In this document: positions 9,491 to 36,168 of the stretch, piece by piece
Layout of the letters: each line of letters starts with the position of its first letter
Position numbering within the stretch: position 1 is the first letter of the stretch
NCBI GenBank assembly: GCA_963720265.1
Contig: CAVRET010000002.1
Coordinates: 456,704 to 520,703, forward strand
DNA length: 64,000 nt
Reading direction: 5' to 3'
Source of the DNA: an uncultured bacterium
GTDB lineage: Bacteria; Patescibacteriota; Saccharimonadia; UBA4664
Notes under the pieces: generated by a model
What the model saw: the letters and a program-made list of their open reading frames with translations, nothing else
Told to the model about the DNA's origin: nothing
Databases searched by the model: none
Translations under genes and position numbers: made by a program

Positions 9491-10711
9491 CTATCCGTTG
9501 CCCACCTGGCTGTCAATATTAGACAGCGGCCCAAACACTGAAATCACCACAAATCCTACCATTGTACCGAGTACCAAAATCAAGATCGGCTCAATGATGC
9601 TCGTCAGGCCCGCCACCGTCGTGTCCACCTCTTTCTCGTAAAACTCCGCCAGCTTGAGCAAAATCACGTCCATTTGGCCGGTCTCTTCACCTACCGCCAG
9701 CATTTGGCCCACGATAGCCGGGAAATTCTTTGAGTCCCGCAGTTGCTCACTCATGGTGCGGCCGTTTTTGACCTTTTGTGCCACGGCCGCCAATTCTTCT
9801 TGGTAGACCACGTTGTTCATGGCCAGCCTGGTGGAGTTGATCGCTTCCAGCACCGAAATGCCGGAGGCGAGCAGCGAGCCAAACGTGCGCGCAAACCGCG
9901 CCACGCTCATCTTCACCAGAATCGGCCCAAAGATTGGCGACTTGAGCAAAAACGCATCCACCGCGTGCCGCCCCTTAGGAGTCTTGCGCCAGCGGATGAA
10001 TATCGCCACCGCTGCCACGGCGCCGCCGATGAGCACGTACCACTCGTGCGTCATAAAGTTCGAAATCTTCAGCATCACCACGGTGTATACCGGCAATGTG
10101 CCGCCGACTTGAGCAAAAATGGAACCAAGCTTCGGCACGATTACGGTCATGAGAAAGAAGAATGCTGCGATCGTGGCCGTGGTCACTACTCCGGGATAAA
10201 TCATCGCGCTCTTCACCTTAGAAATAATTTCTGCATCTTTCTCCTGCTGGGTCGCCAGCCTGTCCAGTACTTGGTCCAAAATGCCGCCTTGCTCACCGGC
10301 CTTCACCATGTTGATATAAATCGGCGAAAACACATCCGGATGCTCGGCCAGCGCCGCGGCCAACGTTCCGCCGCCTTCCACTTGCTTGGCAACCTCCGCC
10401 ACCACCGTTTGCAAACGCTTCGATGCCGACTGCTGCCGCAAGATATTGAGCGACTGAGCGATCGGCACGCCGGCATTAATCATGGTGGCAAACTGCCGGC
10501 TAAAAATGACTTTGTCTTGCAGTGATACTTTGCCGACAAACTTGCTCAGGAAGCCACCGCTCTGTCGACTTGCTGCCATCTCTTTCACCAGAATCGGCGT
10601 TAGGTTCTTCTCCACCAGTGCTGCCGAGGCCGCCGCCCGGTCACCGGCAAATATGGTGCCTTTCTCAATCACGCCGGCTTTGGTGCGCGCGCTGTAGCTA
10701 AATTGACCCAT
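9491..10711 (-). CDS. pilC: Type IV pilus inner-membrane platform protein PilC (GspF family)
   Basis: 406 aa. Two GspF-type repeats with TM helices (VFSRQFATMINAGVPI... / ...GEETGQMD). Confidence 0.9.
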   Translation of the reverse strand: MGQFSYSARTKAGVIEKGTIFAGDRAAASAALVEKNLTPILVKEMAASRQSGGFLSKFVGKVSLQDKVIFSRQFATMINAGVPIAQSLNILRQQSASKRLQTVVAEVAKQVEGGGTLAAALAEHPDVFSPIYINMVKAGEQGGILDQVLDRLATQQEKDAEIISKVKSAMIYPGVVTTATIAAFFFLMTVIVPKLGSIFAQVGGTLPVYTVVMLKISNFMTHEWYVLIGGAVAAVAIFIRWRKTPKGRHAVDAFLLKSPIFGPILVKMSVARFARTFGSLLASGISVLEAINSTRLAMNNVVYQEELAAVAQKVKNGRTMSEQLRDSKNFPAIVGQMLAVGEETGQMDVILLKLAEFYEKEVDTTVAGLTSIIEPILILVLGTMVGFVVISVFGPLSNIDSQVGNG

Positions 10712-10723
10712 GGCTCACCTGTG

Positions 10724-12739
10724 TCATTCGCGTGTCACTCGCAAGATTTCCTCAATTGTGGTTTTACCCATGAGCGCTTTCACAAAGCCGTCCTGCTGCA
10801 TCGTGAGCATGCCGTTGCGTATCGCTGTCGCCTGAATATCATCAGCCGTCGACCGCCCTACCAGCATCTTTTGCATGGTTTCATCTACCTCAAGCACCTC
10901 ATAAATGCCCATGCGGCCGATATAGCCGACACCGCCGCAGTTTTCGCACCCCGGACCGGGCCGGTACAAAATAAACTGGCCGGCCTTCAGTTTGTCTGGA
11001 TTTGGCATCGGCGCCCTTGGTGCCCGGACTGTGTCCGCTATCACTGACGGAAGTACAGGGGTAGGTGCTCCCCCGGCTGCCTTCTTAGCATCGTCTGCGC
11101 TGCGATTGATGATGTTGGGGTCGGTCGCGATCTTATCCAAAATACTCTTGGTGTTTTCAATATCATGCTCCGGCTTCAGAACCAGGCCCTTCTTATGTTC
11201 GCCCGAACCGGGCTCGGCAGCCGGGGCCGGTGCTTCTGCCGGCGGTGCCACGACTGTGGCTTCAGGCGTCCCTTTCAGTTGGTTAAATCGCTTCAGCGCC
11301 GCCTCAAGCTGGAAATCACGCTTAATGTTGGTTAGCTCTACGCCCTCAGGCACGTATCCGATCCGGCAGACCTGGCAAAGCCTTCGCACGAGCCGTTGCC
11401 CGATCACCGTGTTCACCGTTGTCGCAATCAAGAACGGCTCAATGCCCATGTCGAGCAAGCGGGGAAGGGTAGTAGCTGCGTTATTAGTGTGGAGTGTACT
11501 GAGCACAATGTGACCGGTCAGCGCTGCCTGCACGGCCAGATCGGCTGTCTCACCGTCGCGAATCTCACCGACCATAATAATGTTGGGGTCTTGGCGCAGC
11601 AATGCACGTAAGCCGCTGGCAAACGTCATGCCGGCCTTTGGATTCACCTGGGTCTGATTCACGCCCTGCACGCGGTACTCCACTGGGTCTTCAATAGTTG
11701 AAATGTTTACCCCCGGCGTGTTCAGCATGGATAACACCGAATACAGCGTGGTCGACTTACCCGAGCCGGTTGGCCCGGTCACCAGTGTCATTCCGTGTGG
11801 TTTATGCAGATTACGCACAATTGTTTCAAGCGCATGTCCGGTAAAGCCGAGCTCCTCAAGCGTCAGCGCGCGCGTAGATTCATCCAAAATCCGCATCACC
11901 ACCTTCTCACCGTCCATGATCGGCAACGTGCTAACGCGCAGCGCCACGGTCTTCGACCCAATGGTGAACCGGAATCGCCCATCCTGGGGCACACGATGTT
12001 CGTCGATTTTGAGGTTGGACAAAATCTTAATACGGCTCACCACCGCGGCTAAGATTGCCTTCGGCAAGGTCATGGTTTCGCGTAGCACACCGTCCACCCG
12101 GTATCGTACCTGCACCATGCTCTCGCGCGGCTCAATATGGATGTCGGAAGCGCGGCTCTTTACCGCGTATTCCAGGATCACGTTCACGGTCTTGGCAATC
12201 GGCGCATCTTCAGCCAAATCCTTGGCTGACACCTGTTTTTGTTCCTCTTCAGTATCGGCATTCGAATCCTTGATCGCTTGCGTAATTTCGCTCGAAATCT
12301 CGCCTTTGTACTGGTCCAGCGCGCCCAAAATATCCGGCGCTGTTGCCATGGAAACCTTAAGCTTACCGCCGACTTGCTTAGATATAAAATCGATAGCCTG
12401 AAAGTCTTCTGGGTCAGCTACGGCTAGTTGTAGCTGGTCGTCGGCCGCACCAAACAGCACCGCCTGGTACTTACGCGCAATCCGTTCTGGAATCTTGAGC
12501 AGGATCTCGCGCGGAATCTTGGTTTCGCCGAGCTCCACAAACGGCACGTCAATACTCGAGGCATAGAGCTTAGTCAGCTCCTTTTCGCTGATGAGCTTTT
12601 TCTTGAGTACGCTGGAAAGTAGTGTATCTTTGTCGCCGTCTTTTGGCATGACGGCGTCAACTTCCTCGGCCTTAACCTTACCGGCCTCCACCAGCAGCTT
12701 CTTCAGCTCAGTATCAGATATGCGCATTACTATGCTCAT
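10724..12739 (-). CDS. pilB: Type IV pilus assembly ATPase PilB (GspE family), with N-terminal GSPII_E_N-like domains
   Basis: 671 aa. Walker A 'GPTGSGKSTTLYS', Asp box, Walker B, His box, and the tetra-Cys motif (CQVCR...CENCGG). Confidence 0.95.
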   Translation of the reverse strand: MSIVMRISDTELKKLLVEAGKVKAEEVDAVMPKDGDKDTLLSSVLKKKLISEKELTKLYASSIDVPFVELGETKIPREILLKIPERIARKYQAVLFGAADDQLQLAVADPEDFQAIDFISKQVGGKLKVSMATAPDILGALDQYKGEISSEITQAIKDSNADTEEEQKQVSAKDLAEDAPIAKTVNVILEYAVKSRASDIHIEPRESMVQVRYRVDGVLRETMTLPKAILAAVVSRIKILSNLKIDEHRVPQDGRFRFTIGSKTVALRVSTLPIMDGEKVVMRILDESTRALTLEELGFTGHALETIVRNLHKPHGMTLVTGPTGSGKSTTLYSVLSMLNTPGVNISTIEDPVEYRVQGVNQTQVNPKAGMTFASGLRALLRQDPNIIMVGEIRDGETADLAVQAALTGHIVLSTLHTNNAATTLPRLLDMGIEPFLIATTVNTVIGQRLVRRLCQVCRIGYVPEGVELTNIKRDFQLEAALKRFNQLKGTPEATVVAPPAEAPAPAAEPGSGEHKKGLVLKPEHDIENTKSILDKIATDPNIINRSADDAKKAAGGAPTPVLPSVIADTVRAPRAPMPNPDKLKAGQFILYRPGPGCENCGGVGYIGRMGIYEVLEVDETMQKMLVGRSTADDIQATAIRNGMLTMQQDGFVKALMGKTTIEEILRVTRE

Positions 12740-17687: not shown

Positions 17688-17709
17688 ATAAGTTCTTAAA
17701 ATCAAAACC

Positions 17710-17750
17710 GGGGTGGGTCGCGCAGCTGTGAAAGCCTGCGGACCCACCCC
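17710..17750. terminator. Bidirectional stem-loop between convergent rny (+) and a secreted-protein gene (-)
   Basis: Perfect 10-bp stem, ggggtgggtc ... gacccacccc. Confidence 0.6.
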
Positions 17751-17762
17751 ATCGGGTGCTTC

Positions 17763-18299
17763 TTATGGACGGCAGAACGGCACCACCCGGCCGCCCCGGG
17801 TCATGGTTGTGACGGCGGGCAGCGGGCTTGTGGCCAGGAGCTTGGCCGAACCGCTGGTGTGCACCAGCTTGTAGAAGTTGCTGGTCGTGACGGATGGGCC
17901 GCCAGGCGCGAGACAGCCCTTCGGCTCATACTTGTTGATGTCCTCGTTTACTACCGCCGCCTGTGCGACGATCGTAACGGTCGCGACACCACCCGCCGTG
18001 TGCAGCCGAACCTCAATGATAACCACCCGGCAGGTCGTGTTCTGGGACTGTTTGACGCAGCCCAGGCGGACCTCGATGACCCGCTCCGAGGAGTGGGGGA
18101 GCAGACCCATGACGACGTTGCCGCCATGCCACGTCGTCATGGCCCAGTTACTTGAAGCGGTCGACCGGATGGACGCCGGGCTGGCGGTCGTAGTCGTGTG
18201 CGTCGTGGACGCCACAGCGGCAGCGGCGCTCACACTCGTTGCCAGAACGCCAAACACGACGACAGCAGCCGCCGCCAATACCCGAGGTGAAGGCTTCAT
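17763..18299 (-). CDS. Secreted hypothetical protein (signal peptide, Thr-rich linker), GC-rich
   Basis: N-terminus 'MKPSPRVLAAAAVVVFGVLATSVSAAAA'. The plus-strand alternatives are R/V/G-rich antisense-type ORFs. Confidence 0.5.
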   Translation of the reverse strand: MKPSPRVLAAAAVVVFGVLATSVSAAAAVASTTHTTTTASPASIRSTASSNWAMTTWHGGNVVMGLLPHSSERVIEVRLGCVKQSQNTTCRVVIIEVRLHTAGGVATVTIVAQAAVVNEDINKYEPKGCLAPGGPSVTTSNFYKLVHTSGSAKLLATSPLPAVTTMTRGGRVVPFCRP

Positions 18300-18495
18300 G
18301 GTTCCTCCCGAATTGTCAGAACGATCAACTTTACTAGTTAGGCGAAGCTAGCCCTAACTTAGTTGTATAATACCACAAAACATATAAAAAAGCAATTATA
18401 TCCTCGAGTCTCACCATCACAGTTCAATAGATCACTTGCATTTACATACATATAATGGTTATGTTTAAAATAATATCTATTAATCATGGTAAAAA

Positions 18496-19671
18496 ATGGC
18501 AGCCAAGAGTAAACGCAAAACAACTAAAGCAACCAAAACTAATACTGGTTCGGGACGACGCATCCTCGGAATGACCAGATCCCCTAACCAATGGGCCCTA
18601 TATGGCTTCCTGGTGGTGGTTGTCGCACTCGGCGGTTATTTAATTTACAACGCCACCCGCGCCGCCTCTCAACCTGAACTCAAGTCCGACCTAGCGGGGG
18701 GCTACTGCCTCACCGACGATAACAATGGTGGCGCAGGCTCACTTGTTTCAGCCTATTTGTGTAACGGAGGAGCTGACCAGTACTTCAGCACCCGCAGCGC
18801 CGCGAACGGCCCCGAACTCGCCGTCGGCGCGGGCTGCCTGGTACCCCAAGGCAGTTCCTCCACCAGACTTGGTGGCCCTGATGTCGCCATTGGCTCGTGC
18901 GGAAGCTCCACTGCCGACGCTGCTTGGGGTGGTCTCTGGACGACAGGGACCTCCGGTGACGGCAATAGGTACTACAGGAACAATCGCACCGGAGAGTGTC
19001 TGCATGCTACTGCCGGTAGCTCAGTCACCGTCGCCGCCTGTGACACTGGCGCTGCCAGCATGCAGTGGATTCCCTCTACCTACAGTAGTAGTGGCGGGGG
19101 TGGCGGGTCCACGCCCAAGCCGCCAGTTGGAGGGGGCACCGGCTACAACGACCCGCTCCGGGCTGTACAGGCCAATGGCTCGTTAAAACGGGAAAGAGTC
19201 GACCAGGGCGTTGATTATGACGGAAATGGACCGGTCTACGCCGTTGGCCCGGGCATCATTACGAACACCAACAACTCCGGTTGGCCAGAGGGTAATTTCA
19301 TCAGCGAAGAGCTCACCCAAGCGCCGGCCAGTACTTACCATGTATATGTATACGTAGCCGAGACCTGCACGCCAACTGTCTCTGTCGGAGAACACGTCAC
19401 CTCGAACACGGTAATCTGCGATATGCATACCGGTGGGACTGGCATCGAAACCGGATTCGCGGTACCCGGAGAGCCTGAAGCAATGCCGCTAATAGGTCAT
19501 GGCTGTTTTACCGACGGCACTGTGCCCCCGACCATCTTTGGATTAGCGTACGATGCAGTGCTTCAGGCACTCGGTGCTCCTGGCGGCACAATCACACCTG
19601 GCACAACCCAATGCCAGGGCACGTGGCCGAGCAATTGGCCTTCACAGAGCTCAATTTCCAACCTGTTCTAG
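18496..19671 (+). CDS. Membrane-anchored protein: ricin-B-like lectin domain, Gly/Ser linker, and a C-terminal M23/LytM-like (degenerate) peptidase-like domain
   Basis: K-rich N-terminus with a TM helix (ALYGFLVVVVALGGYLIYNATRAAS). QxW-type beta-trefoil motifs (CLHATAG...CDTGAASMQWI). SSSGGGGGS linker. C-terminal 'DQGVDYDGNGPVYAVGPGII...GNFI...HVYVYV...GEHV...ICDMHTGGTGIETGF' resembles the M23 topology. An AT-rich promoter region lies upstream. Confidence 0.6.
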   Translation: MAAKSKRKTTKATKTNTGSGRRILGMTRSPNQWALYGFLVVVVALGGYLIYNATRAASQPELKSDLAGGYCLTDDNNGGAGSLVSAYLCNGGADQYFSTRSAANGPELAVGAGCLVPQGSSSTRLGGPDVAIGSCGSSTADAAWGGLWTTGTSGDGNRYYRNNRTGECLHATAGSSVTVAACDTGAASMQWIPSTYSSSGGGGGSTPKPPVGGGTGYNDPLRAVQANGSLKRERVDQGVDYDGNGPVYAVGPGIITNTNNSGWPEGNFISEELTQAPASTYHVYVYVAETCTPTVSVGEHVTSNTVICDMHTGGTGIETGFAVPGEPEAMPLIGHGCFTDGTVPPTIFGLAYDAVLQALGAPGGTITPGTTQCQGTWPSNWPSQSSISNLF

Positions 19672-19698
19672 GCCAGCAGTAGAGTAGAATAGAAGCCC

Positions 19699-19740
19699 CC
19701 GGAAAAAGGAAGCGCCACAGCTTCCTTTTCCCGTAGCAGA
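19699..19740 (+). terminator. Rho-independent terminator after 18496..19671
   Basis: ggaaaaaggaagc-gccaca-gcttccttttcc stem-loop followed by a T-rich tract. Confidence 0.6.
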
Positions 19741-19805
19741 AATCCTTTACTTTTTCTAAGCACAAGCAGTATCATAAAAACCAAAGCTAAATTTAAGGGC
19801 ACTCT

Positions 19806-20825
19806 ATGCCATCCCAAAAAACAAAAAAGTCCAAGAGCAAAAGCTCAAGATCCCAAGCAAAAACGATAACATTTGGTCGTTCCTGGCTCGTCTTGAGCCG
19901 TCGTCCATTCCTATCACTAATGACTCTGGCCTTCGCCGTGCTATTCGTGGCCGTCGGAGGCTACCTTATCTACAACGCCACCCGCGCAGCGTCTTCCTAC
20001 GTCGAGCTCCGTGCCGGCAATCTTAATGGCTATTGCGTTGATAGTTCTAACATTGAGAACTGCGATTCCTCGAATCCGAACCGGGTTTGGCTCTATATGT
20101 CTGGGAACTTCGCCATCAAGAGTGAGGCCGGGCTTTGCCTTGATGACTGGAACCATGGCGTCCAAACGCAAAACGGCACCAAGTACAGGGTGCCTGTTCA
20201 CTACACCACATGCTACGGTGACACCGACCAGGAGTGGCACTGGAGCGGCAGTCGGCTTCAGAGCAATGCGAGTGGCGGTTGCCTTAATGGCCTGGGCGGG
20301 ACGACCACCCCGGGCACGCCACTTGGTGTCTACACATGCAATTCCGGATCAAACGAGCTCTTCTATGAGACCTCGGTCAACGTCAGTAGTAGCGGCGGCG
20401 GCGGTAGTGGTGGTGGCTACAGCTGCGCTGGTTATAGCCGCCTTGCTAACAGCGTTCCTGGCCCGCTCGTAACCGACGCTTCTTCCTCCGAGTGTGCGAG
20501 TGCCAACAAATATATGGCTCAGTACGGCATGGACACCGCTTCTCAAATGCAATGCCTCAGCAGCGTCTGGATCTGGGAAAGCGGTTGGAGATGGAATGCC
20601 CAATATCCTGATACCACGCCGTATACTGGGGCTTACGGTATTCCTCAGTCCGACCCGGGCAGCAAAATGGCATCAGCCGGCTCCGATTGGCTCACCAACC
20701 CCGACACGCAAATTAAATGGGGCGTTGGATACGTCGCCGGTGCCTATGACCATGACGCCTGCAGCGCTTGGTACTCTGAGACCCACAACGGCGGCTACGT
20801 CCTAATCGGTGGTAAATACTTCTAG
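19806..20825 (+). CDS. Paralogous membrane-anchored protein: ricin-B-like lectin domain, Gly-rich linker, and a C-terminal lysozyme-like or peptidoglycan-hydrolase-like domain
   Basis: Shares the N-terminal 'GGYLIYNATRAAS' anchor with the previous gene. QxW motifs (DQEWHW). C-terminal 'WIWESGWRWNAQYP...GAYGIPQSDPGSKMASAGSDWLTNPDTQIKWGVGYVAGAY...CSAWY' matches a motif I recall from Gram-positive and phage cell-wall lysins. Confidence 0.6.
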   Translation: MPSQKTKKSKSKSSRSQAKTITFGRSWLVLSRRPFLSLMTLAFAVLFVAVGGYLIYNATRAASSYVELRAGNLNGYCVDSSNIENCDSSNPNRVWLYMSGNFAIKSEAGLCLDDWNHGVQTQNGTKYRVPVHYTTCYGDTDQEWHWSGSRLQSNASGGCLNGLGGTTTPGTPLGVYTCNSGSNELFYETSVNVSSSGGGGSGGGYSCAGYSRLANSVPGPLVTDASSSECASANKYMAQYGMDTASQMQCLSSVWIWESGWRWNAQYPDTTPYTGAYGIPQSDPGSKMASAGSDWLTNPDTQIKWGVGYVAGAYDHDACSAWYSETHNGGYVLIGGKYF

Positions 20826-20874
20826 AACATGCATTAGCTAAGGCACCTTGAGCCAAAGCAATTAATTGCAAAAA

Positions 20875-20920
20875 GAACAGTAAAGGCGCCAAAAACAAAG
20901 GCCCTTTACTGTTCTTTGTT
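20875..20920 (+). terminator. Rho-independent terminator after 19806..20825
   Basis: 12-bp stem gaacagtaaagg ... cctttactgttc followed by tttgtt. Confidence 0.7.
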
Positions 20921-21086: not shown

Positions 21087-21617
21087 ATGAGGATTTTCGA
21101 ACCAGTTGTCGGATTTCTGGCGGCCACCGCGGCCGTCGCGGCCCTTGTAACCGTGGCCGCCGGCCCGGCTGGAGCGCAGACGCGCTACCCGTCGCCGACC
21201 GGCACGGTCTACGGCGTTGAACACGACCTCTCGCGCGGTGAGATCACCGCGTTGAGGAAGGGAGCGATCCACCCGGCCGCGTACCCCATCATGATCAGCG
21301 TGAACGGCCATCCGCGCCAGTTTGGTGCCGAGCTGACCTTCGGCGAATACGTCGGCTTCTGGCTGGTCGAGCGCGGTCAGCCCGCTCAGGTGGAGTACAA
21401 CCAGTATGTCAGGCTGGGCCCGCCGATCTCGAGATGGAACGGCATGCCCGTATACCGCTACCGAGGGACCGGCGAGTTGCAGGGCTGGACGTACTTCGTC
21501 TACGACCACCACCAGGGCGTCAACGCCCTGCTGGTACTACAGGGCAGGTCGGCCTTCCTGACCTACTGCACCCTCTGGCGGCTCTTCGACCAGGCCAATA
21601 TGGGGCAAGCTCCCTAA
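21087..21617 (+). CDS. Secreted hypothetical protein, GC-rich
   Basis: Signal peptide 'MRIFEPVVGFLAATAAVAALVTVAAGPAGAQ'. Aromatic-rich mature part. The antisense ORF is junk-like. Confidence 0.5.
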   Translation: MRIFEPVVGFLAATAAVAALVTVAAGPAGAQTRYPSPTGTVYGVEHDLSRGEITALRKGAIHPAAYPIMISVNGHPRQFGAELTFGEYVGFWLVERGQPAQVEYNQYVRLGPPISRWNGMPVYRYRGTGELQGWTYFVYDHHQGVNALLVLQGRSAFLTYCTLWRLFDQANMGQAP

Positions 21618-23980: not shown

Positions 23981-24177
23981 CCGGCGGCCGGGGCGACGAC
24001 GACCCCGACCGCCCAAGACTGGAGGCTGCTTCCAGTCTTAATTAATGTATGAACTTCAGACGGCCGTGATATACTGGGTGCCGGGCACCCAGCCCTTCAC
24101 GCATAAATCTAATTAATAATTCCTGGTACCCCTTAGCGGACACGTTACGAACTCTAAGCCCGTAGTGATTGTTAATA

Positions 24178-24945
24178 CTAAAGCTCAAACACCGTCACAA
24201 TTGGCAAATGGTCGGACGCCTTGCTTAGGGGCAAATCAGTCTCAAGAACTTTCATATCACGAGTTGCGAACATGTAATCAAGCCGCCAAGTGAAGGGGTC
24301 CGCCTTATGATTAGTGTCGTGGTATTGAAAGGGCATCGTTGGGAAAGATGGCTGACTATCAACCGGATCCGCCTGCATCAGTGACCTCCTGAGGGACTGG
24401 ATAATGTAAGAATCAGGATCCGCGTTGAAGTCCCCAGCAAGTACAAATCTCTCTGTTCGATTGCCTATTGCCTCAACAAGTCGGTCAGACTCAGCCTTCC
24501 GGTGTTCAGTCATTTCAAAATAGGGTGAGTACGACAGCTGAGTCGTTCCAACTGTCAATTCGCCTGAGGGCGTAACAAACGTGCCCTCTATATATACCCG
24601 GTCATAATTCGAAGCATCATGTTTGTCGGAATCGCCGCGGTTAATGAGTGTATGGCTAAAGCTCTTCACCCCATGCCTACCGAACAAGCCGACACCCTCT
24701 ATCTTATGACGCTCACCGGCGCGCTGAATAGTGGGCACGAAGCTGTATGCGTAACCCAAATCGGCCACGAGCTCCGGAACGTTGATATCAGGATTAGCCT
24801 CAGAATCCTTTGTCATTTCCTGCAGGCATAAAATGTCAGCGTTAACAGATTTAATAAATTCTAGGGTTGGACCGACTGGGCTTTTCCAATATAGATTCCA
24901 GTTCAGAATTTTTAACTTCATGGAACAATTATAGGTTGCTCTCAA
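24178..24945 (-). CDS. Endonuclease/exonuclease/phosphatase (EEP) family protein
   Basis: 'LKILNWNLYWKSPVGP...ADILCLQEM...' N-terminal EEP motifs and 'SDHLPIVTVFEL' at the C-terminus. Confidence 0.85.
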   Translation of the reverse strand: MRATYNCSMKLKILNWNLYWKSPVGPTLEFIKSVNADILCLQEMTKDSEANPDINVPELVADLGYAYSFVPTIQRAGERHKIEGVGLFGRHGVKSFSHTLINRGDSDKHDASNYDRVYIEGTFVTPSGELTVGTTQLSYSPYFEMTEHRKAESDRLVEAIGNRTERFVLAGDFNADPDSYIIQSLRRSLMQADPVDSQPSFPTMPFQYHDTNHKADPFTWRLDYMFATRDMKVLETDLPLSKASDHLPIVTVFEL

Positions 24946-24979
24946 GGACCGACGTAGCCAAAAATAAGCATAACAACTT

Positions 24980-25056
24980 TGGTACCCCCGGCAGGACTCG
25001 AACCTGCGACCATTGGCTTAGAAGTCCACTGCTCTATCCAGCTGAGCTACGGGGGC
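24980..25056 (-). tRNA. tRNA-Arg (anticodon TCT), CCA encoded
   Basis: Reverse complement gives GCCCCCG-TA-GCTCAGCTGGATAGAGC...CTTCTAA...GCAGGTTCGAGTCCTGC-CGGGGGT-A-CCA. Acceptor, D arm and T arm are perfect. The anticodon stem has only 3 of 5 pairs. Confidence 0.65.
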
Positions 25057-25081
25057 TCATGTCGTCATAATACAAAAATGG

Positions 25082-25152
25082 TGCGGGTGGAGGGAGTCGA
25101 ACCCTCGTAACCTGCTTGGAAGGCAGGCGCACTGCCGTTATGCTACACCCGC
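25082..25152 (-). tRNA. tRNA-Gly (anticodon TCC)
   Basis: GCGGGTG-TA-GCAT-AACGGCA-GTGC-G-CCTGC-CTTCCAA-GCAGG-TTAC-GAGGG-TTCGACT-CCCTC-CACCCGC-A. All stems pair. CCA is not encoded. Confidence 0.85.
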
Positions 25153-25259
25153 GCAGCAAGCACACCTACTATACCAGCGAGCGACCATAAGCACAAATAA
25201 ATCCCGGGCGCATGCTTCCCGGGATTTATCGCGGACTTGGACTTAAAACAACGAGCGGC

Positions 25260-25730
25260 CTACAGGCAGCCCTGGCTAACCCATTGGTTCCAATCATTCT
25301 GGCACCAATTCGAACTATAGCAACACCACTTGCCGTTGCTCCAATAGCCCATTTGGCTGTAGTTGTACCACTTGCCGTTGTACATCATGCCGCCATTGTT
25401 GCCGTAGTTGTTACCACTGTTCGCGTAGTAAATGCTACCGCCACCGTAGTTATTGTTGCCGTAGTTGCTACCACCGCCATTGCTGTAGTAAATGCTACCG
25501 CCACCGTAGTTATTGTTGTTGTAGTTGCCACCTTGGTTGCCATAGCTATTGCCATAGCGGTTGCTACTATTGTAGTTGCTGTACAACGCCGGCTTCTGGT
25601 TGTTGCAGTTGCAATTGTTGCCGCGGTTCATGTCGCCCGAATTGCCAGCCAGAGCGCTTGCTCCGCCGAGCGCCACGATCCCTGCTGCAACGGCCAAGCC
25701 GCCACCATACCTAATTAATAATGTTTTCAC
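25260..25730 (-). CDS. Secreted Gly/Asn/Tyr-rich low-complexity repeat protein with a Cys/Trp-rich C-terminus
   Basis: Signal peptide 'MKTLLIRYGGGLAVAAGIVALGGASALA'. Internal tandem repeat NYGGGSIYYxNxG(x)NYGNN, with a matching ~60-bp DNA repeat at about 25430-25530. The plus-strand ORF 25212..25718 is its antisense. Confidence 0.5.
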   Translation of the reverse strand: MKTLLIRYGGGLAVAAGIVALGGASALAGNSGDMNRGNNCNCNNQKPALYSNYNSSNRYGNSYGNQGGNYNNNNYGGGSIYYSNGGGSNYGNNNYGGGSIYYANSGNNYGNNGGMMYNGKWYNYSQMGYWSNGKWCCYSSNWCQNDWNQWVSQGCL

Positions 25731-25890
25731 GCACCCTCCTTATTGGATTTATTAGTTGTTACAACTGTTCAGAATAGCGCACTAACGGTATATAAGTACA
25801 AAAAAAGTTACAAAAATCCGGCACCAAATCGCTCAAAATTTGGGAATATTGTCAGTCACACGAAATGTCGGGTAAAATGAATTAGTCCTG

Positions 25891-25965
25891 GTCGGGGTGA
25901 AAGGACTCGAACCTTCGACCTCCTGCTCCCAAAGCAGGCGCGCTAGCCAACTGCGCCACACCCCG
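25891..25965 (-). tRNA. tRNA-Pro (anticodon TGG), CCA encoded
   Basis: CGGGGTG-TG-GCGC-AGTTGGCTA-GCGC-G-CCTGC-TTTGGGA-GCAGG-AGGTC-GAAGG-TTCGAGT-CCTTT-CACCCCG-A-CC(A). Confidence 0.85.
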
Positions 25966-26037
25966 ATAACCTTGCCATTATACTAGATTTTCAGGCTAGA
26001 ATACGGTAAAGTACCTAAGTTAAAAACCATTTCCCAT

Positions 26038-26115
26038 GGCGGGAGTAGCTCAGTTGGTTAGAGCGACGGGTTGTGGTCCCGTAGGTCGTGGGTTCGAGCC
26101 CCATCTCTCGCCCCA
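26038..26115 (+). tRNA. tRNA-His (anticodon GTG) with genomically encoded G-1 and CCA
   Basis: G(-1)-GCGGGAG-TA-GCTC-AGTTGGTTA-GAGC-G-ACGGG-TTGTGGT-CCCGT-AGGTC-GTGGG-TTCGAGC-CCCAT-CTCTCGC-C-CCA. The extra 5' G pairs with C73. Confidence 0.9.
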
Positions 26116-27687
26116 AGCATTCATTTTCTTCGCGTCTGCGATTGCAGAAAACGCACTGTTAAGCTCAAAAACCAACGTTGAGCCTTCCAGTTGGGTGTTC
26201 GAAAGTACGAACTGGATGAGCCGCCTCTTTGTGCTGACAGGAGTTCTCTCGTTCAGGAAAATCTCGCTGGCTCGGCTAGCGACTTCTAAGACCTTGGACG
26301 CGGATACCACAAAGCGCTCGTTGCCCTGGCTGTGGTCTTTTATTTGCTCTAGCACATCAGCTTGGCGCTGCGCCTTTTCGCCAATCAGCTCTTCGAACAA
26401 CTCAGGCTTAATCTTGAATTTTGAGCGGTCTCGAAACATATCTTTAATCTCTTCATCCAGGCGCTTGTATTCTTTCTGCAGCGAGTCCACTTGGCGCTTG
26501 TAGTAATCTTGCTCGCCGTTAAACTCTCTCTCCAGGTCTTCGACCAGCTTTGGCAGCATGTCTCCTGGTATTCTGAACGACTCCAGTATTGCTACTATCT
26601 GGGCGTTGATTACCTTCTCGTTCACCCACTTCGCCCCGTGTTTACCCCCGTACTCTGTGCACTTTAGGTAGTAGTTGCCACCGTTCTTCGGCCCGTCGGT
26701 CGATACAGTGTAGCCGCATGTTCCGCACCTGAGCATATCTTTGAACAGGTATTCTTTTCCCACCAACTTGGTTCTCTGCTTTGAGCGCTTCGCATCTACT
26801 GCTTTCACCTTTTGCCACATCCACGGGTCAATCAGCGGCTCGTATTTGTGAGGGTATTGTTTGCCCTCGTAAACCATCGTGCCAGAGTAAAACGGGTTCA
26901 TCAGGAAATGCTGGACCTGGGTTTTCGGAATCGGCTTCTTCTTAATACTGGAGACCATGCCCTTTTTTCGCAGCTCTTTGGTGATTGCACCATACGACAA
27001 CCCTGCGGCCCGCATCTCGAAAGCCTCTCTTACGAACTGCCTCTTCTCAGGGTCTGCCTCAATATCTTTGATTGGGTCTCCCTTGGTAGTGTAGCCAACG
27101 ATAATGTTCCGGTAGCCAATTGGCGCTTTCCCTGGCCACTCCTGGTCGGCCAGCTTTTGCTCAAATTTGCGGCGTACATTGTCTCTTATTGCGGAACTAT
27201 AATAACTGGCCAGTGCTACGCCAATGTCTAAGCGGAATAGGTCGGCTGCTGGCGAATCTTTGTGTACAAACAAATTGTCCGCTGGAAAATGAAGCTCAAT
27301 TTTCCCCGCCCGCATCAACTTTGTCATGATGCTCTTTTCTTCACTTGAGCTATCGCGAGTGTAGCGGTCAATTTTGTCGAAAGTGACTATGACTAGGCCT
27401 TCCGCCTGCTTGAGCGGCTGAAGCACCAGCTCGCTGAAGGTTTTCCTGGCCTTGCCGTAATATGCCGACTCATCAAATTCCGCGTACGCGTAACGTTCCG
27501 GTCTTTTCTCCACATATTCGACCAGCCGTTTGCGCTGTGCTGGCAGCGCCGGCCTTTGGCTGGCATCAGAGACCCGTGCCACAGCTAAGATAAAACTGTC
27601 GCCGGATTCTGCGAGACGTTCCACCTTCTCTGCTTTCTCGGGCATGAAGCTGTCGCCTTCAAACATCGCCATTGCCTGTGTTTTCAT
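26050..27687 (-). CDS. Large serine recombinase (integrase)
   Basis: 545 aa. N-terminal resolvase catalytic domain '...ILAVARVSDASQRPALPAQ' (catalytic Ser), a recombinase domain, a zinc ribbon 'CGTCGY...C', and a coiled coil. The C-terminal 22 codons overlap the tRNA-His 3' end. Confidence 0.9.
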   Translation of the reverse strand: MKTQAMAMFEGDSFMPEKAEKVERLAESGDSFILAVARVSDASQRPALPAQRKRLVEYVEKRPERYAYAEFDESAYYGKARKTFSELVLQPLKQAEGLVIVTFDKIDRYTRDSSSEEKSIMTKLMRAGKIELHFPADNLFVHKDSPAADLFRLDIGVALASYYSSAIRDNVRRKFEQKLADQEWPGKAPIGYRNIIVGYTTKGDPIKDIEADPEKRQFVREAFEMRAAGLSYGAITKELRKKGMVSSIKKKPIPKTQVQHFLMNPFYSGTMVYEGKQYPHKYEPLIDPWMWQKVKAVDAKRSKQRTKLVGKEYLFKDMLRCGTCGYTVSTDGPKNGGNYYLKCTEYGGKHGAKWVNEKVINAQIVAILESFRIPGDMLPKLVEDLEREFNGEQDYYKRQVDSLQKEYKRLDEEIKDMFRDRSKFKIKPELFEELIGEKAQRQADVLEQIKDHSQGNERFVVSASKVLEVASRASEIFLNERTPVSTKRRLIQFVLSNTQLEGSTLVFELNSAFSAIADAKKMNAWGERWGSNPRPTGPQPVALTN

Positions 27688-27896
27688 TTGTTGCCTCCTT
27701 TATTCTTTTCAATGTCCGCAGCCTTCAGGCTTGCGTACTTTTCATCCAGCTCGTTTTGCCTATCTTGCTCAATCAGCAATTTCAGATAGCCAATCAACCC
27801 GTCTTGTTGCTGCGGCCCGTCAGGTCGCAACGCTTGTTTTGCTAGTTTTTCAAATCGCTTTTTTCTGCGGCTCATTTTGCCTCCGTTCGCACCCAA
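27684..27896 (-). CDS. Small basic/acidic helical protein upstream of and overlapping the integrase (possible recombination directionality factor)
   Basis: 70 aa. 4-nt overlap with the integrase start. No motif recognised. Confidence 0.35.
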   Translation of the reverse strand: MGANGGKMSRRKKRFEKLAKQALRPDGPQQQDGLIGYLKLLIEQDRQNELDEKYASLKAADIEKNKGGNK

Positions 27897-28136
27897 AAGG
27901 GGCGACTCCGGTTGACCCAGCTAGGCTCAAGAAGAGCTGTTACCGGCGGAGCCGCCCCTAAGGAGCGGTAAAGCCACTAAAAAACTTCTTGGGCAAAATC
28001 TAGCTTGGGTCAACGAATTAATTATAATCCGGTGAATCATAGATATCTAATAGACTTATCCACTTAGAAGAGGGAATCTAATTGGATATCCAATAGTATT
28101 TAGGTATCCATATAGACATCTATATAGCTATATAGA

Positions 28137-28529
28137 TTAGGGTGGTTTATTCGAGTCTTTTTCTAGCTCTTCAAAGGCTTTATCCATAAGTTCGTCCAGG
28201 TTCTCGATATCCTCATCGGTAGGGAGAATATCAGGAGTTTTCAGGGCCTCAACAGCTTCGAGTACAAGGCTCTCAATTTTCTTCCTCAGCACTGATTCTT
28301 TTGTCAGCTCAATCGGCTTGATGTAACCATTACCGCGCTTAAACGCCGGCATCTGGACCCACAAGTCCCCGTAGCGAGGCGAGCGGCGAACACTAATGCT
28401 GTTAATGAACAGCTCAATGTCCGGAAAGTTGACTTTAACGAGGTAATATTCAGCCTTGTCATCGCGGTAGTACACCTCTGCCGTAGCAAGGTCAAGGCTG
28501 AGGAAAATTTTAGTTGGCTGGTCGCTCAT
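28137..28529 (-). CDS. SpoVG-like protein (phage or plasmid-borne)
   Basis: 'VKVNFPDIELFINSISVRRSPRYGDLWVQMPAFKRGNGYIKPIEL' resembles the SpoVG core (hhhDIRVh..G.LFVAMPSKR..G...DIAHPI). Start uncertain. Confidence 0.4.
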   Translation of the reverse strand: MSDQPTKIFLSLDLATAEVYYRDDKAEYYLVKVNFPDIELFINSISVRRSPRYGDLWVQMPAFKRGNGYIKPIELTKESVLRKKIESLVLEAVEALKTPDILPTDEDIENLDELMDKAFEELEKDSNKPP

Positions 28530-28815
28530 TCGTACCATCCTCATGCTCATTTTTAACTTCAGAATGTTGCCCGCCGTACAGCCACGATTTCAACCTACGA
28601 GTTGCGTCGTGATACAGCCTGGGGTTCAATTCGATGCCGTCATCCCAATACAGTTCCACTACAGAGCGCAGTTCCGGCGAGTCCCAAAAAACAAAACCAA
28701 CCCGCCGCTGATTACTCCGGTCCAGGCCAATCGCTTTGAAGCCTTTGGCAGCCAGGACCGCAGCTAGCGGCAGGTCGGATGTAGTGAATTGTTTTTCAGC
28801 CAGTGCCATTCTCAT
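28510..28815 (-). CDS. DUF5659-like phage-associated protein
   Basis: 'FTTSDLPLAAVLAAKGFKAIGLDRSNQRRVGFVFWDSPEL' matches my recollection of DUF5659. Confidence 0.4.
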   Translation of the reverse strand: MRMALAEKQFTTSDLPLAAVLAAKGFKAIGLDRSNQRRVGFVFWDSPELRSVVELYWDDGIELNPRLYHDATRRLKSWLYGGQHSEVKNEHEDGTNERPAN

Positions 28816-28878
28816 CCTGCGTGATTACAGGTGTGAGCTTAGCCTAGTAATTTTCCGTGGTATAACCCCTAAATGAGT

Positions 28879-29571
28879 TCACTTACGTTTTGACTGGCGT
28901 TCAAATGTGCGAATAAGGCCAGGAATTTGTGTATAGTCGTAGATTCCTCCAAGCTCTTCCTCAATGCGGGCAGCAATCTCGCGGTTTGTAAGGTTGGGGT
29001 CTTCTTGCTTCAATTCTGCTGCTCGCCGTCCGTCTTCCAACCTTTCATCATCTAACGCTCTTATTTGGTGTACTCTTTTATGCTTCAGCGATGCCAGGTG
29101 CCAGCTCACGTCCTTCCACGCCGCTTTCCACTCACGGCTGTTAATGTTGGCATCAACATGCACTATTAGATAATCAAGTGGTTTACCCATATGGTCGCTT
29201 GAGCGGACGCCCACATTAGTTGTGGGCCGCAGTTTACTGCGGTCACCGTAGGTAATGAAATCCGTAATGAAAGAGTCCCAGAAAGGAGAACAGCGATGTT
29301 TGGCAACAAGCTTGGCAGTTGCGTTCTCAAGTAGAGTTGATGGCATACGGGCTAGTATTTTGTCGCCGTCCCAGTCTTTGCCAGCAGCAACGTATGCTTC
29401 TCTGTTGTGCGATAAAAAATAATCGTGGTCGAGGTCAACTCTTTCCTTATACCCGCCTGTCGGATAGCCGAGCCTTCTGCGCACTCGGTCCGCATCTTTG
29501 CGAAACTCTATGTTTTGCAAAAACGCCTCATACGCTTTCTCAGCGGAACTTTTTACTTTGGTGTCAGCCAT
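28879..29571 (-). CDS. hypothetical protein
   Basis: Start chosen at 'MADTKVK', which has a GGAG Shine-Dalgarno 6 nt upstream. 230 aa. No family recognised. Confidence 0.5.
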   Translation of the reverse strand: MADTKVKSSAEKAYEAFLQNIEFRKDADRVRRRLGYPTGGYKERVDLDHDYFLSHNREAYVAAGKDWDGDKILARMPSTLLENATAKLVAKHRCSPFWDSFITDFITYGDRSKLRPTTNVGVRSSDHMGKPLDYLIVHVDANINSREWKAAWKDVSWHLASLKHKRVHQIRALDDERLEDGRRAAELKQEDPNLTNREIAARIEEELGGIYDYTQIPGLIRTFERQSKRK

Positions 29572-29684
29572 TTTCATCTCCATCCTCATCTGGGCATATT
29601 CTCTCACGCCTGGTTGCCAACAGGGGTATCCGGAAGAATTCCTAGTCAATTCACGGCTTGCGGTTTACCTGTCAAAATAAAAAT

Positions 29685-30134
29685 ATGGGGGAGAAGTCAA
29701 CAAAAGTCGGCCGGCCAGCCGCGATAACAACGGCTTGTGTCCAAAAACTGGAACAGGCGTTTCGTGAGGGTTCGGACACGGCAACGGCCTGCCATCTATC
29801 TGGAATTTCGCGGTCTACATACTACCAACGTCTTGCCGACGACTCCGAGTTTTCGGACAAAATGCGGCTTGCGCAAGAGTGGCCAACTGCACTCGCAAGA
29901 AAAACGGTTGTCAGCGAAATTAACAAAGGCAACTTTACTGCCGCGCGCTGGTGGCTTGAGCGCAAGGCATCTGCCGAATTTGGCCAAACTCCGGCTACAG
30001 GTAAGCATCCCGAACCGGCTATCAACCTAACTCAGGCTCAGTGGGATGCAATGCAGCAAGCTTCAGAAGCTGCAATTCGGTTACTGCAGGGTGAGCCGGA
30101 CACAGGCTCGGGGGCTGGCAATCTCGTTGACTGA
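29685..30134 (+). CDS. HTH DNA-binding protein resembling a phage terminase small subunit
   Basis: 'VGRPAAITTACVQKLEQAFREGSDTATACHLSGISRSTYYQRLADDSEFSDKMRLAQE' is a typical TerS-like N-terminal HTH. Confidence 0.5.
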   Translation: MGEKSTKVGRPAAITTACVQKLEQAFREGSDTATACHLSGISRSTYYQRLADDSEFSDKMRLAQEWPTALARKTVVSEINKGNFTAARWWLERKASAEFGQTPATGKHPEPAINLTQAQWDAMQQASEAAIRLLQGEPDTGSGAGNLVD

Positions 30135-30336
30135 GGCAAAAATGACGCGCATACTTTTTGCGTTGACGTTAGACAGTAGTTTTTAGTTTCCGCGCGTTTT
30201 CGCGTGGTTGCGATTTGAGCCTGAATAGGCCGCAATCACCGAAAAATAGTAGGCTCAAACCTGCTGTCTGGCGTCAACAACCTAGGTGGTTGTGGCCTTT
30301 TTAATTGGCCCTCCCCGTTAATAAAGGAGGCGCGTC

Positions 30337-30723
30337 ATGGACATTCAGCCAGCCACAAAACCTAAACAAGTAGAGATGCCGCCCGACCAGGCTACGGGCA
30401 AAAAGGTGGCCAAAGGGGTGGCCGGAGGCGCTGCTGGGATTATTATGGGGGTCATCATCGGTATAGTAATGTTCATTGCCGGCCTCTTGCTCACGTTCAC
30501 CATCATTGGGGCAATTATTGGAATCCCGCTCATGATTGCAGCTTTTGTAACGCCGTTTGCGTTTGGCGGAGCGATGGCCAAACACGCAGCCACTGCAATT
30601 GAACTGACATGCCCGTACTGCGACAACAAGGTGTCATGGACAAAACGGAAAAAGGCTGGCGTTTGTAGGGTCTGCCAAAAGCGACTGATAATGAAGGGTA
30701 ACAAGCTTCAGGTTGTTGAGTGA
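30337..30723 (+). CDS. Membrane protein with a C-terminal zinc ribbon
   Basis: Strong Shine-Dalgarno (aaggagg). Two TM helices, then 'CPYCDNK...CRVCQK'. Confidence 0.65.
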   Translation: MDIQPATKPKQVEMPPDQATGKKVAKGVAGGAAGIIMGVIIGIVMFIAGLLLTFTIIGAIIGIPLMIAAFVTPFAFGGAMAKHAATAIELTCPYCDNKVSWTKRKKAGVCRVCQKRLIMKGNKLQVVE

Positions 30724-30870
30724 TGCCGGAGGAGAGTAAGAAATCGGCTGAGCGGTTTGTCTGGCACGAGGGGGATTACGAGCTTGTGCCCACGGAAGAA
30801 TTGGGACGTAGCAGGCAAAACAGACTCAACACGCAAAACCCAAAGGCGCGCGGTGAGAGAGAAAGCCCCG

Positions 30871-31965: not shown

Positions 31966-32489
31966 TAGCGATAGGCCTCATCAAGCTCCTGGAAAAACTG
32001 TCCAAGATAAAGTTCGTCCAGTCTTGGCGAGCCTGCTGGGCCAGTAAAGCCAAAGTCGCAAACGGGGTTTGTGCACCTGTAGCTGTAAATTCCAGCAGCA
32101 CCATTTTGGTATGACCTTTCAACTGTACCCTCCTGGCACTTCGGGCAGTGAATAACTTTCGACTCCCCGAAGTAGCTTTGCCGCTCAACAAACTTACCCA
32201 TTCCATAGCTTGAGAGATAGCGTAACTTGCGCTCAAGTTTCTCAACCGAAGTTGTGCTGAGCTTGTTCTCGCTTACTAGCTGTTGGATCTCAGCAAGTGT
32301 CGCCATGCGGTCAACCGGCTCCGGATTGGGAAGCTCCAGTGGTCGCGCCCCAGCCACACTAGGCTGGCTCCGACGCTGAGCCTTGTACCGGTTGGTTCTA
32401 TGCTCATCATAGCGCTCCCACAGCCAGCCTAGCCCGATTAGTAAGCCAATAATGATAATTACAGTCATGGTTCTGATGTTAAGATACAT
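31965..32489 (-). CDS. Membrane-anchored protein with a C-terminal double zinc ribbon
   Basis: N-terminal TM 'MTVIIIIGLLIGLGWLW'. 'HCPKCQEG...YRCTNPVCDFGF'. Translationally coupled to the downstream nuclease gene. Confidence 0.6.
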   Translation of the reverse strand: MYLNIRTMTVIIIIGLLIGLGWLWERYDEHRTNRYKAQRRSQPSVAGARPLELPNPEPVDRMATLAEIQQLVSENKLSTTSVEKLERKLRYLSSYGMGKFVERQSYFGESKVIHCPKCQEGTVERSYQNGAAGIYSYRCTNPVCDFGFTGPAGSPRLDELYLGQFFQELDEAYR

Positions 32490-32519
32490 CAGTCCACTTG
32501 CTTTGCTAAGGCTCCAATA

Positions 32520-33266: not shown

Positions 33267-33326
33267 AATGTAATTCGTGGCAAATCTGCAATAAGATAGG
33301 GCTACGTTTGAAAGTTTTAGGGAGAA

Positions 33327-36132: not shown

Positions 36133-36168
36133 GATTATAGCGATGGTGCGTTAGGAGAGGCGATTACT

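Follow-up and report, generated by a model that had tools for sequence, protein, structure and literature searches.

How ultrasmall episymbiotic bacteria belonging to the Candidate Phyla Radiation (CPR) breach or remodel the envelopes of their hosts is an open question. Saccharibacteria recognise host wall glycans in a lectin-like manner and alter host walls, and studies of host attachment and feeding have so far implicated type IV pili as well as lectins of unidentified nature (PMC11623550). The described systems closest to the locus analysed here are the aggregation-promoting factors Apf1 and Apf2 of Lactobacillus, the soluble lytic transglycosylases (SLT) represented by Slt70 and related phage lysins, the M23 endopeptidases together with the LytM regulators that have lost the zinc site, and the modular endolysins and polymorphic toxins. 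Here, two adjacent genes, gene 1 and gene 2, are described from a stretch of 64,000 nucleotides (the window; positions 456,704 to 520,703 of contig CAVRET010000002.1, assembly GCA_963720265.1) of an uncultured bacterium of the Saccharimonadia. The two gene products combine a common N-terminal layout, including a ricin-type lectin module, with different C-terminal domains. With a probability of roughly 0.55, they represent a pair of Sec-exported, lectin-targeted peptidoglycan-acting proteins belonging to a cassette-shuffled family in this Saccharimonadia-like (CPR/Patescibacteria) bacterium. Ricin-fused wall hydrolases in Saccharibacteria or other CPR bacteria were not found described in the literature searched.

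The shared chassis and its exchanged ends

The original prediction, made from the sequence alone, had described two adjacent open reading frames (ORFs) coding for a lysine-rich N-terminus, a helix, a lectin, a Gly/Ser-rich linker and different C-terminal ends, and both ORFs are present exactly in this form (Table 1). The N-terminal regions are strongly basic, with nine Lys and Arg among 32 residues in gene 1 and ten among 34 residues in gene 2 and with neither Asp nor Glu in both, followed by an uncharged helix, 19 residues long in gene 1 and 22 in gene 2, which the AF2 models extend over residues 32-56 and 34-60. The 13-residue string GGYLIYNATRAAS closes the helix region identically in the two proteins and is encoded nowhere else in the 64-kb window. 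Because the coding DNA of this string differs synonymously at several places between the genes, for example GGCGGTTATTTAATT versus GGAGGCTACCTTATC, its identity reflects selection on the peptide, and recent gene conversion as its source is ruled out by the same differences. Just past the hydrophobic helix, an N-x-S/T sequon (NAT, NSS, NAS or NST) is kept in many proteins of this layout (positions 18649-18657 and 19974-19982 of the window; P0003, P0004, P0011 and P0123), with glycosylation, cleavage context or chance as possible explanations.

Description of the genes as a paralogous pair holds for the N-terminal segment, to which significant pairwise similarity is limited (47% identity over 59 amino acids (aa), E 4e-10), whereas the ricin modules show no detectable pairwise similarity, belong to different subtypes and are shuffled among relatives. 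Both proteins nevertheless pass the Pfam gathering cut-off of 29 bits for Ricin_B_lectin (PF00652), and both are thus, by profile, carriers of ricin-type beta-trefoil lectin modules with predicted sugar binding. The lectin of gene 2 is modelled by AF2 with a predicted local distance difference test (pLDDT) score of about 90; for the lectin of gene 1, strands are predicted at a pLDDT below 50. In a Foldseek search of the PDB, the gene 2 lectin matched the carbohydrate-binding module family 13 (CBM13) structure 1knm_A with a target-normalised TM-score (TMt) of 0.78, ricin B chains with a root-mean-square deviation (rmsd) of about 2.3 Å, and the CBM13 of Streptomyces xylanase and arabinopyranosidase with E values of about 1e-7. 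By reading, the repeats of gene 2 comprise one canonical QEW, the degenerate RVW and ELF as well as CVD/CLDD motifs, and those of gene 1 comprise MQW and DQYF. The gene 1 lectin is 64% identical to the lectin module of gene 2 of a related locus, L009.

Among the relatives the chassis, consisting of basic N-terminus, helix, ricin module and Gly-rich linker, is constant, with C-terminal ends that vary. M23-like ends occur in P0123, P0125 and P0004; SLT-like ends in P0002, P0003, P0005 and others; a CHAP-like end in P0124; NlpC/P60-like ends in P0013 and P0015; a second ricin module in place of an enzymatic end in P0014; and a peptidoglycan-binding-like end in P0122. The exchange can be followed between close relatives. 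P0122, encoded on the same 1.108-Mb contig as the window and outside of it, shares 99% identity with gene 1 across an aligned portion that makes up 38% of gene 1 and, from inspection of the sequences, is the lectin region; it continues into a different end. The first 180 aa of P0010 (locus L008) and P0015 are 100% identical and then diverge completely into an SLT-like and an NlpC/P60-like end, respectively, and P0014 joins a chassis 91% identical to that of P0010 and P0015 to its second ricin module; these three are either very recent cassette swaps or alleles of one locus. P0004, finally, combines the lectin subtype of gene 2 with the type of C-terminal end of gene 1.

The position of the gene pair is equally preserved. 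Locus L009 is syntenic with the window and reads PilC, PilB, NUDIX, glycoside hydrolase (GH), TsaE, RNase Y, a chassis with a CHAP-like end, a chassis with an SLT-like end, a 186-aa secreted protein, YmdB and HU. From this synteny, with a CHAP-like instead of an M23-like end, the place between rny and ymdB that holds the tandem pair is read as a conserved slot with exchanged lectin and enzymatic modules. The full chassis itself is rare, with about 25 full-length relatives among 5.8 billion proteins. Its closest relative among species-representative genomes resides in a metagenome-assembled genome (MAG) of Candidatus Saccharimonadales, and one member of the family carries an annotation from Saccharimonadales.

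In related contigs, ricin modules were also seen fused to or beside GH5 cellulase-type domains (L011, 15976-17721; L015, 10700-13197), and L011 codes for giant PA14/RHS-repeat proteins as well. These observations suggest that the organisms possess a broader set of surface proteins which act on glycans and are addressed by lectins.

The two C-terminal domains

Profile and structure-prediction searches of the C-terminal domains, a check proposed together with the original prediction, returned hydrolase-type folds for both proteins and a catalytic Glu for gene 2, with the M23 zinc motifs missing from gene 1. Single-sequence searches of the two domains against the PDB gave nothing useful, and profiles were needed.

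The lysozyme- or lytic transglycosylase-like end claimed for gene 2 has been borne out. The domain matches the NCBIfam family NF052397 (aggregation-promoting-factor C-terminal-like) with 70.9 bits against a cut-off of 40 over profile positions 1-80 of 80, and the motifs quoted for it, ESGW, AYGIPQ, PGSKMASAG and C.AWY, are all found. E258, S259 and AYGIPQ (aa 276-281) are invariant in alignments of 45 and of 22 relatives. In a weak profile match to the PDB (E 0.13), E258-S259 and AYGIPQ align with E478-S and SGLMQ of Escherichia coli Slt70, which are the catalytic Glu and the second signature motif of family-1 lytic transglycosylases. The Pfam SLT family PF01464 gives weak matches in 19/22 close relatives (best E 4.1e-6), and the gene 2 domain by itself does not reach the PF01464 threshold. 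In the AF2 model, a helical domain spans aa 227-328 (pLDDT 75-88) with E258 at the end of helix 244-258. Foldseek with the full gene 2 model against the PDB yielded ricin matches only among the top 50; among predicted viral structures, with ricin matches set aside, it yielded a Streptomyces phage endolysin (39% identity) and phage SLT, LT_GEWL and tape-measure lysin domains (TMt 0.44-0.56, rmsd 3.1-4.1 Å). Homologues of the domain were detected by tblastn in 113 phage genomes, including 106 Streptomyces phages and six Lactobacillus phages, at identities of up to 59% and with annotation as transglycosylase, endolysin or tape measure protein. Gene 2 is thus, judged by sequence and model, very probably a glycan-strand-cleaving enzyme with either lytic-transglycosylase or muramidase chemistry; PrgK, for example, has an 'SLT' domain that turned out to be a muramidase (PMC11323569).

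The end of gene 1 is of a different nature. Its C-terminal approximately 175 residues are modelled with pLDDT values mostly of 82-97, and Foldseek matches LytM, lysostaphin, EnpA and Csd with a probability of 1.0 and a TMt of 0.52-0.62 (LytM 2b13_A: TMt 0.62, rmsd 3.6 Å). An extra helical extension of about 60 residues is located at the C-terminus. A profile of the gene 1 domain family finds LytM in the PDB with E 9.5e-4 and aligns D-Q-G-V-D (D236-D240) with H-Y-G-V-D of LytM, while E289 in the segment Y-V-A288-E289 is placed on the catalytic His of the LytM YxH motif or one position away from it. The H-x-H segment of LytM would correspond to G316-I-E318-T-G320-[WF], a residue mapping which lies outside the HMMER alignment, with E318 as the putative replacement of the first or the second His.

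An exhaustive profile search recovered 2,172 clusters of this domain at E<=1e-3 and 694 at E<=1e-30 (clustering at 50% identity), and 360 members drawn from clusters at 50% or 90% identity were examined for residue conservation. The HxxxD zinc motif is absent, with His replaced by Asp in 360/360 members; the His residues of HxH and YxH are equally absent, and a His at any His-equivalent position occurs in only 4/360. The Pfam M23 threshold is missed as well (17.4-18.9 bits versus 28.7). What is preserved instead is a different set of residues: D236, G238, D240, E318 and G320 in all 360 sequences, E289 in 357, W263 in 355, R234 and A288 in 354 each, and W321 in 352, with Phe in seven that include gene 1. 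Named members of the family are nearly all uncharacterised proteins of Actinomycetota MAGs. Recognisable fusion partners among 96 multidomain members are modules for peptidoglycan, namely Phage_lysozyme2 (12), SLT (3), SLT_2 (3) and, with one case each, Transglycosylas, GH3, LysM and PG_binding_1; the lectins ricin (3) and B_lectin (1) and GDSL esterases (3) are found as well. One member, P0128, is encoded in a type IV secretion system (T4SS)-like cluster (L015, 1043-8164) in which a VirB4-type AAA_10 ATPase of 866 aa and several unknown proteins precede it. P0128 consists of a glycosidase-like 'MQESS...GLFQQR' domain and the His-less M23-fold domain, a layout and position of the PrgK/VirB1 type of wall hydrolase; it derives from the same sample as P0002 and P0004. 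Other members are stand-alone chromosomal genes without a hydrolase neighbour (L013, L014).

Taken at the level of sequences and models, the gene 1 domain family is clearly peptidoglycan-associated, and its M23 scaffold holds a site made up of strictly conserved carboxylates alone. Because the carboxylates are invariant or nearly so across the 360 members and fusions to muramidase and SLT domains recur, the evidence indicates a conserved non-canonical site rather than a decayed one. Of the 'degenerate M23/LytM-like' end foreseen for gene 1, the fold without the canonical His is therefore retained, whereas the term degenerate does not fit.

A possibility that we regard as somewhat unlikely is that the gene 1 product is a non-catalytic 'LytM factor', comparable to DipM, EnvC and the LytM domain of PrgK, which binds and regulates a glycan cleaver, most simply the gene 2 product, to which it would be joined via the shared chassis. 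Gene 1 lacks HxxxD and HxH, its Foldseek matches include the non-catalytic LytM domains of DipM, EnvC, SpoIIQ and PrgK, and for LytM domains without zinc motifs, regulation of lytic transglycosylases, of amidases or of a muramidase has been described (PMC11323569; PMC10336132). Gene 1 also adjoins an SLT-type gene, and the fusions of its domain to Phage_lysozyme2 and SLT domains can be read as 'Rosetta-stone' links. However, four carboxylates located on or next to the former metal/catalytic positions and kept with (near-)invariance in 360 sequences resemble a catalytic or metal site more than a protein-protein interface, the equivalent gene in L009 carries a CHAP-like enzyme, which suggests a slot for enzymes, and many family members stand alone, with no hydrolase beside them. 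Because the four acidic residues are strictly kept and a CHAP domain is swapped in at L009, the evidence tilts towards a functional catalytic or substrate-binding site in the gene 1 domain rather than a regulator.

That neither protein is a wall enzyme, the two being lectin adhesins or toxins with inactive C-terminal domains that serve as binding or structural modules only, appears highly improbable. Ricin-type lectins are indeed common in adhesins and toxins, and Cry/Tpp toxins and haemolysins are found in the Foldseek list. Invariance of the catalytic Glu-Ser and the GLMQ-like motif in the gene 2 family, annotation of its phage homologues as endolysin, transglycosylase or tape-measure protein, the strictly kept acidic positions of the gene 1 family and its fusions to peptidoglycan modules all argue otherwise.

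Export, target wall and neighbourhood of the gene pair

The proteins had been proposed to be membrane-anchored and displayed on the cell surface. An uncharged helix is found as predicted, while anchoring as such is unproven, as the sequence AAS, AAT or AAA followed by the lectin also fits a cleaved Sec signal peptide. In 23 family members, the layout is constant, with a basic n-region (K+R 8-13, D+E 0-1), an uncharged run of 18-23 aa containing G-G/A-Y, and a short polar stretch ending in AAS, AAT or AAA, after which the first lectin strand follows at once. A run of 18-23 aa is long for a signal peptide, and the layout would suit a cleavable signal peptide of the long Gram-positive type no less well than a signal-anchor. 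The export fate matters because an anchored protein reaches the own wall only, whereas a released protein could act on a host.

A sequence of events compatible with the lectin-targeted, peptidoglycan-acting pair can be outlined. The basic N-terminus and the hydrophobic helix would direct export, with the helix either kept as an anchor or cleaved after AAS. The ricin module would dock the protein onto a wall glycan other than peptidoglycan, and the flexible Gly-rich linker would give the C-terminal 'warhead' reach to nearby peptidoglycan. The warhead of gene 2 would then cleave glycan strands in the SLT manner via Glu258, and that of gene 1 may be a peptidoglycan-directed module which works together with its glycan-cleaving partner, be it as an endopeptidase whose metal or acid site is non-canonical or through a groove for the binding of peptidoglycan or of its partner. 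Both gene products would thereby act on the same lectin-marked wall. The identities of the domains, the conserved residues, the shuffled modules and the conserved locus are seen in the sequences and models themselves; catalysis by gene 1, the glycan bound by the lectins, the export fate and the target wall are inferred.

Which wall this might be is a separate matter, in which a Gram-positive, actinobacterial host or neighbour is marginally favoured over the own wall. Actinomycetota are the known hosts of cultivated Saccharibacteria. The nearest named relatives of both warheads are found in Actinomycetota, and the gene 2 domain is found in actinophage lysins as well. Rapid module shuffling of a rare chassis, the presence of several paralogues in a 1.1-Mb genome and the published glycan recognition and wall changes on Saccharibacteria hosts (PMC11623550) point in the same direction. 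So does a conserved small secreted protein gene downstream of the SLT-type gene. Homologues of this 176-aa protein (49-54% identity) directly follow the SLT-type gene in L002, where the outer flanks differ, and in L009, which together with the window amounts to three loci, and the protein does not follow the M23-type gene in L003. A metagenome scan for further loci recovered the organism of L009 only and no independent locus, and the protein has no Pfam match, while its best PDB match (E 0.68) is not meaningful. A role as partner, inhibitor or immunity protein of the SLT-like enzyme is conceivable.

Several points weigh against the preferred reading. The gene pair sits between the housekeeping genes rny and ymdB, and the Apf proteins of Lactobacillus, studied best among the proteins with the gene 2 type of domain and likewise encoded by tandem monocistronic pairs, act on the own cell surface and on cell shape (PMC3666127). 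If the helix is a true anchor, the enzymes could, with no spacer before the lectin, reach the own wall only. The gene 1 domain fails both M23 signature motifs, and LytM domains without zinc motifs are, where studied, non-catalytic regulators (PMC11323569; PMC10336132). No matches to the gene 1 domain were found among phages and plasmids, and the candidate of a phage- or plasmid-borne lysin was rejected on this ground. Constant adjacency of the gene 1 and gene 2 types was also considered and does not hold in L002 and L003.

A serious possibility, with chances somewhat short of even, is that the two proteins are housekeeping autolysins which remodel the own wall in growth and division in an Apf-like fashion, tethered in or near the own membrane with the ricin module on an own secondary wall polymer and without involvement of a host wall. 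Apf surface proteins are essential to growth and cell shape, with tandem monocistronic genes (PMC3666127), the gene 2 domain is a curated member of the Apf C-terminal domain family, and a glycan cleaver together with a peptide-side activity is needed by every walled cell. A locus conserved between rny and ymdB and a helix of 19-22 aa, long enough for a membrane anchor and followed by the lectin without a spacer, would fit such a role. Rarity of the chassis does not, and warheads and lectin subtypes that are swapped even between close relatives would be unusual for core autolysins. Furthermore, autolysins are not usually anchored by ricin or CBM13 modules, and the close homologues of the catalytic domain in actinophages are lysins.

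Extending the reading of a lectin-targeted pair leads to a two-part proposal, which as a whole we consider distinctly unlikely. In the first part, the His-less M23-fold domain (D-x-G-x-D ... A-E ... G-I-E-T-G-W) would be an unrecognised class of active peptidoglycan hydrolases in which a metal or acid/base site made of carboxylates only replaces the LAS zinc site; in the second, the ricin chassis would define a polymorphic set of lectin-addressed effectors that open actinobacterial host walls, with the 176-aa protein as a self-protecting inhibitor of the SLT-type effector. If true, the carboxylate class would be widespread, with about 2,000 clusters in Actinomycetota and Patescibacteria and with representatives in T4SS wall hydrolases and secreted enzymes.

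Table 1. Features of the gene pair and its immediate flanks; positions count from the first nucleotide of the window
Feature	Positions	Strand	Remarks
AT-rich region upstream of gene 1	18340..18495	+	GC 0.295; TATAAT hexamers at 18366-18371 and 18451-18456 by eye
Gene 1	18496..19671	+	391 aa; basic N-terminus, hydrophobic helix, ricin-type lectin, Gly-rich linker, His-less M23/LytM-fold domain
Gene 1 hydrophobic helix and conserved NATRAAS tail	18592..18669	+	helix aa 33-51, tail aa 52-58; signal-anchor or h/c-region of a cleavable signal peptide
Gene 1 ricin-type beta-trefoil lectin	18679..19068	+	aa 62-191; PF00652 31.6 bits
Gene 1 M23/LytM-fold domain	19138..19644	+	aa ~215-383; D236 19201-19203; D240 19213-19215; E289 19360-19362; E318 19447-19449
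Hairpin after gene 1	19695..19737	+	-20.6 kcal/mol, z -4.7; no U-tract
Promoter-like site before gene 2	19746..19775	+	TTTACT-18-TATCAT, 9/12 matches; consensus scan
Gene 2	19806..20825	+	339 aa; basic N-terminus, hydrophobic helix, ricin-type lectin, Gly/Ser linker, SLT-like (Apf C-terminal type) transglycosylase/muramidase domain
Gene 2 hydrophobic helix and NATRAAS tail	19908..19994	+	helix aa 35-56, tail aa 57-63
Gene 2 ricin-type (CBM13-like) beta-trefoil lectin	20016..20354	+	aa 71-183, 'CLDDW' subtype; PF00652 33.3 bits; PF14200 29 bits
Gene 2 SLT-like catalytic domain	20544..20798	+	aa 247-331; Glu258-Ser259 at 20577-20582; AYGIPQ at aa 276-281
Long hairpin after gene 2	20872..20917	+	110-nt region -39.2 kcal/mol, z -5.9; no clear U-tract
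Conserved downstream gene	21087..21617	+	176-aa signal-peptide protein (ending AGA|QT), no known family

Regulatory signals had equally been foreseen in the form of an own AT-rich promoter and a strong terminator for each gene. The upstream DNA is AT-rich, with a GC content of 0.295 ahead of gene 1 and of 0.433 in the intergenic stretch compared to 0.55-0.58 within the genes, whereas a promoter consensus scan found three sites versus 2.6 expected in shuffled sequence and none for gene 1, for which the AT-rich DNA may nevertheless act as a promoter. Stable hairpins are present after both genes; because U-tracts are missing, they are not canonical intrinsic terminators. A GC-rich hairpin also directly follows rny at 17707-17757 (+), with -34.9 kcal/mol and z -4.1 for the 75-nt region 17688-17762 and no obvious U-tract, which suggests that hairpin-only 3' ends may be usual in this genome.

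PilB/T2SSE, RNase Y, YmdB and HU are encoded in the window. Together with the 1.108-Mb contig and the Saccharimonadales relatives of the chassis, these genes make an origin from the Saccharimonadia likely, if indirectly. Between rny and gene 1, a 178-aa ORF (17763-18299, minus strand) has a signal-peptide-like N-terminus, a Thr/Ala-rich segment and no Pfam match; L009 has no gene at this place. Type IV pilus genes (9491-12739, minus strand), a PilB-type T2SSE ATPase with MshEN at 10724-12739 and, by synteny with L009, PilC at 9491-10711, are located about 6 kb upstream of the gene pair in a neighbourhood conserved in L009. Further downstream, a low-GC stretch at ~24000-36200 (0.45-0.52 versus about 0.56-0.59 elsewhere) starts at a tRNA cluster (Arg, Gly, Pro, His; 24980-26115) and codes for a large serine recombinase (26050-27687, minus strand), an Mrr-type restriction endonuclease (30871-31965, minus strand), an HNH endonuclease (32520-33524, minus strand) and a DUF3644 protein (34184-35152, plus strand), and looks like an integrated mobile or defence island.

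Significance and comparison with known systems

With respect to the breaching of host envelopes by CPR episymbionts, the family provides clonable candidates, in which a swappable lectin 'address' is coupled to swappable wall-cutting 'warheads' whose closest kin are actinobacterial enzymes and actinophage lysins. The gene 1 domain adds to the M23/LytM fold a large branch that is unannotated and has completely different, strictly conserved site residues, and the answer to whether it represents an enzyme of novel chemistry or a hydrolase regulator of a new type would refine the annotation 'degenerate LytM' in thousands of genomes. Should the pair consist of ordinary autolysins, the outcome would be the annotation of a clade-specific wall-remodelling locus.

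Compared with Apf1 and Apf2, the locus shares the C-terminal domain family of gene 2, well above the NF052397 cut-off, and the arrangement, as the apf genes form tandem, separately transcribed pairs that code for extracellular wall-associated proteins. Unlike the pair described here, Apf proteins possess neither a ricin module nor the chassis of basic N-terminus and helix, and here the partner gene carries an M23-fold domain. The NF052397 family also spans actinobacterial 'lytic transglycosylase domain-containing' and G5/DUF348-linked proteins. We know of no demonstration that the Apf domain is enzymatically active. With Slt70 and PF01464 and with the SLT lysins of Streptomyces and Lactobacillus phages, gene 2 has in common the Glu-Ser motif, the GLMQ-like AYGIPQ and the helical lysozyme-like fold; it differs by its fusion to a ricin lectin and by a score below the PF01464 threshold.

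The M23 enzymes LytM, lysostaphin, EnpA and ShyA resemble gene 1 in fold (target-normalised TM-score 0.56-0.62, rmsd 3.4-4 Å), in the Asp of the second motif position (D240), in the glycine framework and in the strand pattern 'GPVYA.G.G.V'. They differ in that gene 1 has DQGVD in place of HxxxD and G-I-E-T-G in place of HxH, no conserved site His and the additional helical extension. Degenerate LytM regulators such as EnvC, NlpD, DipM and the LytM domain of PrgK equally combine the fold with the loss of zinc ligands and with fusion or adjacency to glycan cleavers; in contrast to them, the gene 1 family holds (near-)invariant carboxylates at these positions over about 2,000 clusters, and it has no sequence match to the regulators.

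For polymorphic effector and modular hydrolase systems, the literature searched contains no description of a ricin-type chassis. Export of the gene pair, seemingly of the ordinary Sec type and with no dedicated secretion system, sets it apart from polymorphic effectors. The small conserved secreted protein encoded directly downstream of the SLT-type gene, for which an immunity role may be envisaged, is shared with them, as is, with modular endolysins and polymorphic toxins alike, the constant targeting chassis with interchangeable enzymatic ends. While modular lectin-addressed wall hydrolases as a kind are known already, the possible leads of this locus are the all-carboxylate M23-fold family and the organisation of effector plus inhibitor.

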